In this document: positions 21,072 to 35,838 of the stretch, one piece after another | How the letters are laid out: every line of letters begins with the position of its first letter | Position numbering within the stretch: the stretch's first letter is position 1 | IMG/VR virus record: IMGVR_UViG_3300045988_029071 | Coordinates: 1 to 35,948 of that record | DNA from: a virus | DNA length: 35,948 nt | Reading direction: 5' to 3' (one strand) | Made by a program: the position numbers and the translations under genes | Notes under the pieces: generated by a model | Told to the model about the DNA's origin: nothing | The model's input: only the letters and a program-made list of their open reading frames with translations | Databases searched by the model: none

Positions 21072-21162
21072 AGGAGAGTGTGGGATTTGAACCCACGGAC
21101 CGCACATAGGCGATCACCCGTCTAGCAAACGGGCGCATTCAACCTGACTCTGCCAACTCTCC
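21072..21162 (-). tRNA. tRNA-Ser (anticodon GCU), class II with long variable arm
   Basis: Hand-folded cloverleaf of 91 nt. Acceptor stem GGAGAGT/ACTCTCC; D stem GCA/TGC with GG in the loop. Anticodon stem CCCGT/ACGGG with loop TTGCTAG. Variable arm GATCGC/GCGGTC. T arm GTGGG-TTCAAAT-CCCAC. No CCA is encoded. Confidence 0.85.
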
Positions 21163-32646: not shown

Positions 32647-33015
32647 ATGACTATTTTAGATAGAATACGTTCGTTAGCTAACGAAAGAAAAGTTACTCTT
32701 GCCGAATTGGAAAGAAGTTTAGACTTCAGCAATGGCAGTCTCAGGAAATGGGATACTTCAACTCCTAGTGGCGATAAAATTGAAAAAGTTGCTGATTACT
32801 TTAACGTATCAGTCGATTATTTATTGGGTAGGACGAAAAATCCTTACTCACCGAATGACAATTTGATGAACACTCAAGAACTTGAAGCTCTAATAACGTT
32901 TCGAAAAGAAACTGAGGATATGTCAGATGATGAAAAAGAGCGCTTTAATATAGCTCTCATTAACATGATGAAAAATGCTCGTGATCTTGTCAAAGATGAT
33001 TCTTTCTGGAAGTAG
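32647..33015 (+). CDS. CI-like XRE-family repressor without a peptidase S24 domain
   Basis: 122 aa with the N-terminal HTH LANERKVTLAELERSLDFSNGSLRKWDTS...VDYLLGR and a GGAGG Shine-Dalgarno sequence. The short C-terminal part has no Ser/Lys autocleavage motif. Confidence 0.8.
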   Translation: MTILDRIRSLANERKVTLAELERSLDFSNGSLRKWDTSTPSGDKIEKVADYFNVSVDYLLGRTKNPYSPNDNLMNTQELEALITFRKETEDMSDDEKERFNIALINMMKNARDLVKDDSFWK

Positions 33016-33023
33016 GTGATTAT

Positions 33024-33785
33024 TTGAAACGATTTACAAGACCATCAAAAGAAACTTACTTACAATATCACAGAAATGCAAATCAACTACTTATGGATAT
33101 ATCTGACCATTTCAATATCCATATTTCTCAAATAACTTTCGACCTAATTATTGAATTCTTTGAAACTAAGTTTAATATTTTATTTGTCTATTTTGAAGCG
33201 GATTTAGTGTACAATTGGTTTCCAAATAGAAAACAAGAACTTAAGTATAATTTAACTTCAAATAATTCTCTCTTGTTGGTTGATTTCAGCTTTTGTAATG
33301 TTTGTTCTGGAATGACGATTCCTGATTTTCAAAAGAATCGTTTTGTTGTTTACATCAACCAAGATGTGATTAAGGGAAGGGTTATGTTTACAATCCTTCA
33401 CGAATTAGTCCATATATACTATCATCTTATTAATTCTGTTTATGATAAAGTTCTAGTTTCTAAGACTTCGTCAAACTATAGCGATTCCTATCCAACTGAG
33501 ATTGTGCCATTAGAGGACGAAGCAAATACCATTGCATCAATTTTGTTTCTCAATGATTATAAGTTACTTGAGTACATAAAATCCGGCTTGACATTCAAAC
33601 AACTTGTTGAACGTAGTCAAATGTCAAAGCCTGCATTGCATAATCGTTTGATGAACTTTCTAATGTATAATTGTAATTGTCAAGAATATTATGCTCTCAA
33701 TATCGTTCAAGGATACAAAAAAGACGAGGGCTGGACCATTATGGCTTTGCAACAATTTCAAAGAGAATTGCAAGAAATTGCTTAA
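33024..33785 (+). CDS. ImmA/IrrE-family zinc metalloprotease
   Basis: 253 aa with a TTG start. It has the HExxH motif (FTILHELVHIYYH) and lies immediately downstream of the XRE repressor, the canonical ImmR/ImmA arrangement. Confidence 0.7.
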   Translation: MKRFTRPSKETYLQYHRNANQLLMDISDHFNIHISQITFDLIIEFFETKFNILFVYFEADLVYNWFPNRKQELKYNLTSNNSLLLVDFSFCNVCSGMTIPDFQKNRFVVYINQDVIKGRVMFTILHELVHIYYHLINSVYDKVLVSKTSSNYSDSYPTEIVPLEDEANTIASILFLNDYKLLEYIKSGLTFKQLVERSQMSKPALHNRLMNFLMYNCNCQEYYALNIVQGYKKDEGWTIMALQQFQRELQEIA

Positions 33786-33900
33786 AATACAAAAGGTAAA
33801 AAGAACATGACGACATCTGAACAATCGGGGAGATCGTCGACATTTATAAGGTTTAGATAAAGAGTCCAAAACATCATTAAAAAAATATTTGGAGGTAAAT

Positions 33901-34572
33901 ATGAAATTCTGTCCTGAATGTGGCAACCCAGTAGAGGGTTATAAATTTTGTCCGAATTGCGGTTATTCCATCTCTAACCAAGAACCGACTGAACAACCTC
34001 AGCCAGTCGATAAGCCAGCTTCTCCATCTCTTGCCCCACGAAGTAGAAAAACGGACAAAGTCGGGCCGCTTGAGATTGATAGATATAATCGTACCTATCG
34101 TATTCATGGAGCTCAAAAAGCAAAAGGCTCTTCTGGATTGGTCGGAGGAGCAATTAAAGGTACAGCGAAAGCTACACTTGCGGTTAGTACAATGGGGTTA
34201 TCGTTGATACCGTCATTGGTAAAGAAAGACAAAAATGACACTGACTGGTATTCATTCGAGGATTTAGTATCGTATGAATTGATTGTAAATAATCAGACTG
34301 TTGTTTCGGGTGGTGTTGGTCAAGCTTTGGTTGCAGGCGCTATGTTTGGACCTATTGGAGCAGTTGCAGGTGGTATCGTATCCAAACGAAAATCAACCTC
34401 TAAAATTCTAAACATGACCGTCCGTGTGACCTCGAATGACTTCAATAAACCGGTCATATTTATTGACTTGATTAGAAAGCCAGTAAAGAACACTTCGAAA
34501 GAATACAAGGAAGCAGTCGAAAACGCACAACGCATCATGGGAGCTTTGGACGTTATCGTTCATAATTCGTAA
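33901..34572 (+). CDS. Zinc-ribbon protein with Pro-rich linker and glycine-zipper-like segments (lysogeny-module accessory gene)
   Basis: The ATG at 33901 has a GGAGGT Shine-Dalgarno sequence, whereas the track start at 33889 is a TTG inside that sequence. It has CPECG...CPNCG, and the Gly/Ala-rich stretches GLVGGAIKGTAKATLAVSTMGLSLI and GGVGQALVAGAMFGPIGAVAGGIV. Confidence 0.7.
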   Translation: MKFCPECGNPVEGYKFCPNCGYSISNQEPTEQPQPVDKPASPSLAPRSRKTDKVGPLEIDRYNRTYRIHGAQKAKGSSGLVGGAIKGTAKATLAVSTMGLSLIPSLVKKDKNDTDWYSFEDLVSYELIVNNQTVVSGGVGQALVAGAMFGPIGAVAGGIVSKRKSTSKILNMTVRVTSNDFNKPVIFIDLIRKPVKNTSKEYKEAVENAQRIMGALDVIVHNS

Positions 34573-34622
34573 ATAAAAAAGCCCCACGCTCTCAAAAACT
34601 TTGGCGAGTCTGAGCGTGAGGC
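34572..34622 (-). terminator. Intrinsic terminator oriented against the lysogeny operon
   Basis: The - strand reads GCCTCACGCTC-N20-GAGCGTGGGGC (11 bp including one G-U) followed by TTTTTTATTT. On the + strand the stem has a C-A mismatch and no U-tract. Confidence 0.55.
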
Positions 34623-34695
34623 AATCAGGATAGTAAAAGGCATTAAAAAGCCCTCTTTTCTATACCCATTTTATCAAAAAAGTGAGGTAAACGCA

Positions 34696-35838
34696 ATGTG
34701 GATGGAAGAATTACCAAACGGAAAGTATAAATTTTTTGAACGATATAAAGACCCGTACACTGAAAAATTGAAGAGGGTATCTGTAACGCTTAGTTCTGGT
34801 ACATCACGAGCTAAGAAGGAAGCTCAGAAGCTATTAGACGAACGTATAGAAGAAACTTTACAAAATTTACAATCAACAGATGTGACTTATCAACACGTTT
34901 TAGATGAATGGTGGACATTTTACCAGAAAGAAATCAAAGGTAGTTCTATCAGCTCTCTTACAAGTAGCGTGAATGATTTTAAGGAAGCGTTCGATACAGA
35001 AATTAAAGTTAAGAATATAGACACTAAATATATCCAGAGATTCTTAAATGATCTAGATATTTCTCGTTCAAAACTAGAGCGCTATAAAATGATTTTAAAT
35101 CTATCACTTGATTATGCAGTTAATCTTGAATATATCAAAGACAATCCTGCAAGACGAGCGAAACTTCCAAAACAAATAAAAACAATCGAAGAATTAGAAA
35201 AAACAGAAAAGAAATTTTTAGAAGAGGAAGAATTAAAAAGATTACTAGAGGAATTGTATAGAACAAAGAATACATACAGACTAGGATTGCTTGCTGAATT
35301 CATGGCATACAATGGTTGTCGAATTGGTGAAGCCATTGCCATTAAACAAGAAAATATTGATTTCGATAACAAGACAGTAAAAATCCATGGAACTCTAGAT
35401 AAAACAGTAGGGTATTCAAAAGGATTTAAAACAACTACTAAAACTGCTGCAAGCTTCAGAACTGTTTCTTTATCAAAGAGAGAGATTGAAATTTTAAAAG
35501 AGTTTATCTCAATAAATGAACTTTCTAAAAATACTCGAAAAACATTCAATGATCTTGGATTTATCTTTGTTACCAAAAACGGTATACCAATCCAAAATAA
35601 TTCTTTCAACTTAGCAATCCAGAAAGCAAATAAACGTTTAAAAAATCCAATCGACAAACATCTTACCTCGCATATTTTTAGACATACTCTTGTTAGTAGA
35701 CTAGCAGAAAACAATGTACCTTTAAAAGCAATTATGGCAAGAGTTGGTCACTCCGACTCTCGAACAACTAATAAAATATATACACACGTTACTAAAAAGA
35801 TGGATGATAATATCTTGGACTTGCTTGATTCTTTATAG
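34696..35838 (+). CDS. int: Tyrosine integrase (phage integrase family)
   Basis: 380 aa. The C-terminal catalytic region has RIGEAIAI, HIFRHTLVSRL, GHSDSRTTNKIYTHV (R...HxxR...H...Y). It lies adjacent to the terminal repeat. Confidence 0.92.
   Translation: MWMEELPNGKYKFFERYKDPYTEKLKRVSVTLSSGTSRAKKEAQKLLDERIEETLQNLQSTDVTYQHVLDEWWTFYQKEIKGSSISSLTSSVNDFKEAFDTEIKVKNIDTKYIQRFLNDLDISRSKLERYKMILNLSLDYAVNLEYIKDNPARRAKLPKQIKTIEELEKTEKKFLEEEELKRLLEELYRTKNTYRLGLLAEFMAYNGCRIGEAIAIKQENIDFDNKTVKIHGTLDKTVGYSKGFKTTTKTAASFRTVSLSKREIEILKEFISINELSKNTRKTFNDLGFIFVTKNGIPIQNNSFNLAIQKANKRLKNPIDKHLTSHIFRHTLVSRLAENNVPLKAIMARVGHSDSRTTNKIYTHVTKKMDDNILDLLDSL

Follow-up and report, generated by a model that had tools for sequence, protein, structure and literature searches.

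The locus described here is the lysogeny module of a virus genome sequence, IMG/VR virus record IMGVR_UViG_3300045988_029071, positions 1 to 35,948, and by "the window" we mean this whole stretch of 35,948 nucleotides (nt). Its subject is a gene for a 223-amino-acid (aa) protein that sits between an ImmA-type metalloprotease and a tyrosine integrase, in an operon headed by a cI-type helix-turn-helix (HTH) repressor. All four genes lie on the plus strand and the lytic genes of the window on the minus strand (Table 1), which bears out the co-orientation recorded in an earlier annotation of this DNA, hereafter the sequence-only reading, in which the product was put forward as a candidate superinfection-exclusion or abortive-infection effector. 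We conclude that the 223-aa gene is a swappable cargo gene (moron) of the lysogeny module of a mitis-group streptococcal prophage, and we weigh below what its product may do.

The open reading frame (ORF) caller had begun the gene at a TTG (33889..34572, plus strand), as did the sequence-only reading. Because this TTG falls within the Shine-Dalgarno sequence and full-length homologs measure 219 to 226 aa, we take ATG 33901 to be the real start; with that correction the earlier ORF stands, and its GGAGG motif is kept in relatives bearing the gene. Compared with 17 streptococcal homologs, the ratio of nonsynonymous to synonymous substitution rates (dN/dS) is 0.03 to 0.12 at a synonymous divergence (dS) of 0.55 to 0.96. 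The gene is real and under strong purifying selection. Copies occasionally decay: the one in Streptococcus oralis OD_326128_08 (L028, 5989-6672) contains an internal stop, and representative P0146 is frameshifted through the glycine zipper described below. A protein of 100% identity is encoded on one IMG/VR viral contig (L055, IMGVR_UViG_3300006458_000019, 35,591 bp), about 1.4 kb from the contig end; this contig is probably the same phage as the window.

A consensus scan found no promoter-like site in the 115-nt gap between ImmA and the 223-aa gene. A promoter of the gene's own in this gap was rejected, the TATAAA of relatives not being conserved in the window, and cotranscription with the repressor and ImmA is likely as judged from the sequence.

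Table 1. Genes, protein segments, and other features of the window (pLDDT, predicted local distance difference test of the AlphaFold2 model)
Feature	Residues	Position	Strand	Basis or remark
cI-type HTH repressor, first gene of the co-oriented lysogeny operon		32647..33015	+	HTH_26, HTH_3
ImmA-type metalloprotease, immediately upstream of the 223-aa gene		33024..33785	+	Peptidase_M78 PF06114, E 7e-7
Shine-Dalgarno sequence GGAGG		33891-33895	+	5 nt before ATG 33901; read off the sequence
Coding sequence of the 223-aa protein, stop codon included	1-223	33901..34572	+	start ATG 33901
N-terminal C4 zinc ribbon	1-23	33901..33969	+	CPEC-x9-CPNC, Pfam matches, pLDDT 87-90
Pro/Gln-rich linker, predicted disordered	24-50	33970..34050	+	pLDDT 54-74, no secondary structure
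Strands 1-3 of the predicted PH-like sandwich, VGPLEIDRYNRTYRIHG	51-69	34051..34107	+	strands 52-54, 57-60, 65-68, pLDDT 94-96
Insertion 1, Gly/Ala-rich loop	70-114	34108..34242	+	pLDDT <50 at residues 78-106
Strands 4-5 of the predicted sandwich, acidic flank, WYSFEDLVSYELIVNNQTVVS	115-136	34243..34308	+	strands 122-129, 132-138, pLDDT 88-95
Glycine zipper, family signature, GGVGQALVAGAMFGPIGAVAGGIVS	137-161	34309..34383	+	conserved glycines, ladder; low pLDDT at residues 139-165
Basic collar after the zipper, KRKSTSK	162-168	34384..34404	+	sequence; family consensus KKKTKK
Strands 6-7 and C-terminal capping helix (predicted)	169-223	34405..34569	+	strands 172-178, 185-191, helix 200-222, pLDDT 93-96
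Small-RNA-like element with terminator		34576-34660	-	antisense, between the stop codon of the 223-aa gene and int
Tyrosine integrase (int), immediately downstream of the 223-aa gene		34696..35838	+	Phage_integrase, E 6e-32
tRNA-Ser (anticodon GCT), phage-borne		21072-21162	-	among minus-strand phage genes

Loci of relatives were sought with a profile built from a six-sequence alignment, and the neighborhoods in genomes were typed with hidden Markov models made from the cI, ImmA, and integrase of the window, together with a Pfam scan of unlabeled neighbors. GTDB species genomes yielded 33 loci, 20 in mitis-group streptococci and 13 in Lachnospiraceae, Blautia, Enterocloster, Granulicatella, and other Clostridia. 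In essentially all of them a cI-type HTH gene stands upstream, in many cases accompanied by a Peptidase_M78 gene, and in most a tyrosine or serine recombinase stands downstream; this position spans five genera or families. Relatives are encoded on 131 IMG/VR viral contigs, where the gene was called in 79 loci; cI stands within two genes upstream in 66 of these 79 and a tyrosine integrase within two genes downstream in 57. The cI/ImmA-to-integrase slot is held down to about 35% identity in Streptococcus, Granulicatella, Lachnospiraceae, Blautia, and Enterocloster, and relatives at 38 to 45% identity, including those with a DUF4428 plus SHOCT architecture, keep the position, some of them between cI and ImmA. 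The genomic position is strongly conserved, and co-occurrence across essentially all genome loci and most viral loci upholds the slot argument on which the sequence-only reading had been built. In satellite phages of pneumococci and S. mitis the gene follows, by 18 nt, a cI that carries a Peptidase_S24 (self-cleaving-type) domain, and no ImmA is present; dependence on ImmA was rejected on this ground.

Two observations concern the module itself. The ImmA-type protein of the window is 253 aa long, its Peptidase_M78 match covers only residues 105 to 210, and its N-terminal ~100 residues have no family match, while relatives in IPP14 and in Lachnospiraceae loci are shorter (126 to 148 aa). One prophage lysogeny module (L049, 5001-7594) holds two paralogs of the family (375 and 249 aa), each with SHOCT. 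They flank a DUF5067 gene, and int is preceded by an additional Peptidase_M78 gene.

The slot is a swappable cassette site. Javan355 has near-identical cI, ImmA, and int genes but carries a gene for a 154-aa TM2-domain protein (L010, 3993-4457) in place of the 223-aa gene, and homology between the two ends about 45 nt upstream of the ATG (window position ~33855) and directly after the stop codon (34573); IPP14 has a different gene again. The TM2 cargo resembles the window protein in its cassette position and in being a small membrane protein, as predicted for ours, and differs in having an unrelated fold with a true two-helix TM2 domain. In the Lachnospiraceae and Blautia loci (L034 to L046), lysogeny-module cargo includes Lipoprotein_Ltp, Mrr_cat nucleases, PemK/MazF toxins, and the SocA/Panacea antitoxin, along with KilA-N, T5orf172, and CD20-like proteins. 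Between the 223-aa gene and int lies an antisense element resembling a small RNA, which matches Rfam RF02589 (Spy779816, an S. pyogenes small RNA) at 63.1 bits (gathering threshold 67; E 3.8e-10) and whose stem shows compensatory changes (CACGCTC/GAGCGTG against CACACTC/GAGTGTG). Because it is kept upstream of int whatever the cargo, we assign it to the integrase module; the 'ctRNA_pT181' annotated beside the gene in phiARI0468-2 is this Spy779816-like element and was set aside as no part of the gene.

Family members recur at a second site, immediately upstream of the tape-measure gene, in five phages of clostridial or thermoanaerobacterial type (L001, L003, L004, L048, and L050), where the copies follow the tail chaperone gene in most cases; in L048 and L050 they stand after the tail assembly chaperone gene with gaps of 240 to 250 nt on both sides. 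These placements bear on the proposal that the product belongs to the lysogeny switch, as a cofactor that senses the membrane or stress and, by acting on the ImmA protease or the repressor, modulates induction. Such a role would fit the location of the gene between cI and ImmA within the operon in L005, L053, and L054 and directly after ImmA elsewhere, and strong purifying selection would suit a housekeeping role within the phage. We nevertheless consider it improbable, given that satellites with a Peptidase_S24 cI carry the gene with no ImmA to act upon, that the copies beside tape-measure genes are distant from any switch, and that near-identical cI-ImmA-int modules lacking the gene carry other cargo instead.

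Turning to the protein, its sequence places it in catalogued families with no function assigned. It matches PHROG 27136 from end to end (E 1.2e-139, residues 1-223 against profile positions 1-224 of 224), and its C-terminal half matches PHROG 888. A precomputed match to Pfam family PF27000, 'PH_gly_zipper', is recorded for the 100%-identical cluster P0002 and all 120 listed relatives, as well as for relatives at 35 to 45% identity, and the hallmark of that family, a conserved glycine ladder between two beta hairpins, is present. We thus describe the window protein, as a sequence, as a new member of the catalogued family PF27000/PHROG 27136; the remark in the sequence-only reading that no characterized family could be recognized holds in that these families are without a function, and fails in that the protein is catalogued. 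Our local Pfam and NCBIfam scans returned sub-threshold zinc-ribbon matches only, the Pfam copy used predating PF27000. A literature search covering PF27000/PH_gly_zipper, DUF4428, the pneumococcal-prophage 'LIM domain protein', and SHOCT in connection with defense found no functional study.

The family is large and its members are modular. In an exhaustive HMMER search of 1.84 billion representatives, 2,126 clusters passed E<=1e-3 and 461 passed E<=1e-10, the majority of matches aligning to residues ~115-221 only. Among 80 diverse members, partner domains comprised SHOCT (38), DUF4428 (15), and plain or double zinc ribbons (about 10), and none had an enzymatic fusion domain. Annotated phage records name such proteins 'hypothetical', 'zf-ribbon-3 domain protein', 'LIM domain protein', 'SHOCT domain-containing', or 'DUF4428 domain-containing'. 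Streptococcal phage members (Javan351, IPP36, and phiARI0468-2) are full-length homologs at 87 to 95% identity, whereas clostridial, Eggerthella, and Thermoanaerobacterium phage members share the core (residues ~115-221) at 32 to 37% identity; named distant members of PHROG 27136 or PHROG 888 are Clostridium phage CDMH1 gp21, phiCDKH02 gp51, and Eggerthella phage PMBT5 gp12. The glycine ladder, P184, Y202, and the C-terminal helix are common to the window protein and the family. It differs from other PF27000 members in its plain C4 zinc ribbon in place of DUF4428, in an extra Gly/Ala-rich insertion between strands 3 and 4, and in having no SHOCT tail (no PF09851 match), ending 1 to 2 residues past the capping helix.

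At the N-terminus, the C4 motif CPEC-x9-CPNC spans residues 4-20 with two CxxC knuckles and arose in 1 of 20,000 composition-preserving shuffles of the protein. Zn_ribbon_3, Zn_Ribbon_1, and DZR match at E 3e-5 to 9e-5, slightly below their gathering scores (PF13248, 23.8 against 27 bits; PF13240, 23.1 against 25; PF12773, 23.1 against 27.3), and a precomputed PF13248 match is recorded for some near-identical relatives. The zinc ribbon named in the sequence-only reading is therefore sound as a motif, whereas the suggestion that it acts as a sensor fares less well: the alignment lacks the ribbon in about half of the closer relatives, already at 75 to 78% identity (for example Javan235 and L126 to L129), and DUF4428 stands in its place in others, so that an essential role is unlikely. 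On these alignments we regard the ribbon as a dispensable, optional part of the family. The linker that follows varies among relatives in both length and sequence.

The AlphaFold2 model of the protein, built from an 80-sequence alignment, has a mean pLDDT of 76, with seven strands and a C-terminal helix at pLDDT 88 to 97 and Gly-rich loops of low confidence. Seven strands closed by a C-terminal helix are the plan of a PH domain, and a minimal family member with neither ribbon nor first loop (P0247) gave a better model (pLDDT 86) that repeats the strand order and the capping helix. Foldseek of the P0247 model against the PDB placed PH-like domains best, namely Spt16/Pob3 (4khb, probability 0.77), hSac2 (4xuu), and Rtt106 (3to1), all of them non-significant (E >= 0.23). 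The full-length model found no match in the PDB, and its top rows, roadblock and longin folds at a probability of ~0.1, were dismissed as noise from the long low-confidence loops. Against BFVD, Foldseek matched only other family members, labeled 'Short C-terminal domain', and a profile search of PDB sequences gave zinc-finger noise only. A PH-like fold is likely on the strength of the model.

As modeled, the Gly-rich stretches are loops inserted into one PH-like beta-sandwich and not free-standing membrane helices. The beta-rich segment and C-terminal helix that the sequence-only reading had treated as separate elements join the strands at residues 52-68 in this single sandwich. Strands 1-3 correspond to the 'FDD' strands of relatives; L127 in strand 4 is near-invariant across the family, as are P184, Y202, A209, and L216. 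The first loop is missing from minimal members and carries a subfamily motif, LA-x-ST-x-G-x-S, in which A94, T97, G99, and S101 are at least 90% conserved.

Both Gly/Ala-rich stretches reported from the sequence are present, and the second goes beyond chance: it forms a six-rung small-xxx-small ladder (G138-A142-G146-G150-A154-G158), a length reached in 51 of 20,000 composition-preserving shuffles. Emphasis on this zipper was well placed, as it is the most conserved feature of the family. Its glycines are the most conserved columns in 80 to 94 sequences of at most 50% identity, and in 80 sequences conservation reaches at least 90% at G137, G138, G140, A142, G145/146, G150, G153, and G157. The label 'amphipathic' does not suit either stretch, with helical hydrophobic moments of only 0.20 and 0.07. 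Nor do they act as independent membrane-insertion modules in the model, where both are loops of the PH-like domain. The best 19-residue segment scores 1.87 on the Kyte-Doolittle scale and sums to +3.4 kcal/mol on the Hessa scale, by which measures the zipper is too weakly hydrophobic for a classical transmembrane helix. A single transmembrane pass through it was ruled out, since the flanking strands form one confidently modeled sheet. No signal peptide was found at the N-terminus, which is occupied by the zinc ribbon, and the zipper gives a weak match to C19orf12. Its center carries an F-G-P turn (family consensus F-G-G) and its flanks are the acidic strand and a KRK/KKK collar. From the length of the segment (~25 residues), its central F-G-P, the acidic strand and basic collar, and the bracketing strands of one sheet, we infer that the zipper is a re-entrant helical hairpin in the cytoplasmic leaflet and does not span the membrane.

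Three groups of known systems offer points of comparison. The first is that of the Gram-positive exclusion genes. Ltp-type genes sit in the slot between integrase and repressor (PMC3952083), and Ltp of TP-J34, orf203 of Sfi21, and Sie2009 share slot and orientation with the 223-aa gene, all being small and expected to act at the membrane; orf203 is the experimentally supported immunity gene of this slot, and Ltp is co-resident cargo in one locus related to that of the window. Homology to orf203 was rejected (best BLASTP E 0.55), and the window protein has neither a Lipoprotein_Ltp (PF07553) match nor a lipoprotein signal, in a sequence comparison that took in orf203 and the Ltp model. In contrast to the window protein, Ltp, orf203, and Sie2009 have a lipobox or true transmembrane helices and face outward, and the orf203 transmembrane segments sum to -2.9 on the Hessa scale compared with +3.4 for the best segment here.

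The second group comprises toxins and secreted effectors with glycine zippers, which drive membrane depolarization in the Firmicute toxins TelE and EsxX (PMC10434224, PMC12744356) and are needed for membrane translocation of Tde1 (PMC10240207). In these proteins, as in ours, a segment of low hydrophobicity bears a long (G/A)xxx(G/A) ladder, which they require for membrane insertion or toxicity; the likeness is one of motif and does not imply homology. Their zippers are terminal tails of secreted LXG or type VI secretion system effectors that come with immunity genes, whereas that of the window protein forms a loop within a folded cytoplasmic domain, and the protein has neither a secretion signal nor an immunity partner. 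No LXG or type VII secretion system (T7SS) delivery domain was found in the protein and no immunity gene adjacent to it, the neighbors being ImmA and int.

The third group is that of bacterial PH domains (PHb/bPH), which form rings (PMC2817789). Strand count and C-terminal capping helix agree with those of the window protein and the best Foldseek rows are PH-like, but there is no significant structural or sequence match to solved PH domains and no match to a bPH Pfam family. Homologs of the membrane-bound defense nuclease SNIPE that lack transmembrane segments carry PH or DUF4428 heads, proposed to be membrane adapters (bioRxiv 10.1101/2025.11.03.685801), and SHOCT has been proposed as an oligomerization module (PMC3581485) and linked to inner-leaflet anchoring (PMC11237479). 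Compared with bacterial PH domains and SNIPE homologs, the glycine-zipper insertion is unique to the PF27000 family, and the window protein has no nuclease or other effector domain.

Taking position, family, and predicted architecture together, we tentatively favor, with somewhat less than even confidence, the view that the product is a monotopic membrane protein, expressed in the lysogen and seated on the cytoplasmic face, with the role of excluding other phages. Its membrane association, topology, oligomerization, and anti-phage activity are what we infer; the product would consist of an optional zinc ribbon, a disordered linker, and one PH-like beta-sandwich, with no signal peptide and no classical transmembrane helix. 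The working part would be the invariant glycine zipper between strands 5 and 6, dipping into the cytoplasmic leaflet as a re-entrant hairpin with a Lys/Arg collar at its exit, and GxxxG-type packing would let copies self-associate; relatives add a SHOCT tail, a proposed oligomerization module. The PH-like sandwich may hold the hairpin until infection. Going by genomic context, the lysogen or satellite host would be protected against other phages at the membrane. As to mechanism, a latent oligomerizing, membrane-perturbing effector of the abortive-infection type is the version we favor, by a narrow margin, over a non-lethal block of entry at the inner membrane face, yet taken singly it must be called doubtful.

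The non-lethal version amounts to classical superinfection exclusion, in which the protein would block, at the inner membrane face and without killing, the channel, tape-measure protein, or host membrane protein needed for siphophage DNA entry. The slot shared with Ltp and with orf203 of Sfi21 (PMC3952083) speaks for it, as do the recurrence of the gene right beside tape-measure genes in five phages, the want of an enzymatic fusion partner in the family, and the presence in 15 of 80 relatives of DUF4428, which with PH has been proposed as a membrane or injection-site adapter in SNIPE homologs (10.1101/2025.11.03.685801). Yet all soluble parts are predicted to be cytoplasmic, unlike those of known Gram-positive superinfection exclusion (Sie) proteins, the dN/dS range argues against coevolution with variable tape-measure proteins, and the tape-measure adjacency may reflect a moron hot spot, CDMH1 having an antirepressor gene there too; we judge this version unlikely.

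Several points count against membrane-level phage exclusion in either form. Membrane association follows from motif logic, in a protein whose best segment has an unfavorable Hessa-scale sum and whose zipper is modeled with low confidence, and the PH assignment draws on the Pfam name, strand topology, and non-significant Foldseek matches. The PADLOC-DB v2.0.0 defense models gave 0 families at E <= 1 against the 223-aa protein, and the literature search found no paper on the PF27000/PHROG 27136 family. Proteins caught up in an arms race with phage partners do not usually show a dN/dS as low as 0.03 to 0.12, and a latent toxin would be expected to come with a trigger or immunity partner, neither of which is evident. 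The argument from position is one of guilt by association in a slot that also houses toxin-antitoxin and regulatory genes. Gram-positive exclusion proteins such as Ltp, Sie2009, and orf203 face outward, whereas the window protein is predicted to be cytoplasmic, and one relative (L052) stands in a context that is not obviously phage.

Some of these points lend themselves to a role in lysogenic conversion unrelated to phages, with the product acting as a membrane stabilizer, as immunity to glycine-zipper or membrane-depolarizing bacteriocins and T7SS toxins, or as an envelope-stress modulator. High conservation suggests a conserved host target, L052 would be at home in such a reading, SHOCT-like domains are tied to envelope-stress systems and inner-leaflet anchoring (PMC11237479), and glycine-zipper proteins can stabilize membranes, as described for YfgH (bioRxiv 10.64898/2025.12.22.696046). 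Given that the sampled contexts are nearly all phage, prophage, or satellite, that co-resident cargo consists mostly of defense or toxin-antitoxin genes, and that no envelope-stress genes were seen nearby, we attach a low probability to it.

The membrane-active motif, and the copies of clostridial phages within the late structural region, could also point to a lysis-timing protein, holin- or antiholin-like or a holin modulator, whose glycine-rich hairpin would do its work at the membrane in the course of the lytic cycle. AbiZ-type proteins act through holins, which would be in keeping with such a role. This is nonetheless very improbable: both in the window and in more than 100 loci the gene runs in the direction of the repressor and against that of the lytic genes, it encodes no classical transmembrane helix, and the lysis genes of the window lie elsewhere, on the minus strand.

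Returning to membrane-level exclusion, the sequence-only reading was right in the logic of its slot and in the importance it gave to the zipper, and is not upheld in assigning the sensor to the ribbon, in positing two independent membrane modules, or in seeing no recognizable family. A more speculative form of the favored reading, which we rate as distinctly unlikely, is that PH_gly_zipper is a self-contained sensor-effector, in which a ring of domains, of the kind that bacterial PH domains form, would sheathe the hairpins until a cue, be it a phage protein, a lipid, or a nucleotide on the sandwich, frees them into the cytoplasmic leaflet as a pore or DNA-entry plug. If true, this would define a new one-domain class of phage-borne membrane immunity. 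The class would comprise hundreds of clusters, which in the sampled loci come mostly from Firmicutes, and would pass back and forth between two hot spots for morons, one in the lysogeny module and one next to the tape-measure gene.

Should the family have no exclusion role, the 223-aa gene would be an ordinary, conserved, and strongly constrained prophage gene. Its architecture, a predicted cytoplasmic PH-like domain with a glycine-zipper loop, matches no characterized Sie or abortive-infection protein, and PF27000 is carried by prophages and satellites of oral streptococci, pneumococci, and gut Lachnospiraceae and by C. difficile phages. Were phage exclusion its role, the family would count as a variant, with a new architecture, of the lysogeny-module exclusion genes already known, and as a widespread defense or exclusion gene (461 clusters at E<=1e-10) missed by current defense catalogues. 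It would also give a function to PF27000, to PHROG 27136, and to the recurrent proteins in which a zinc ribbon or DUF4428 is followed by a middle domain and SHOCT, and would make the gene a candidate determinant of host range in lysogens, of interest for the biology of pneumococcal and oral-streptococcal phages and for phage therapy.

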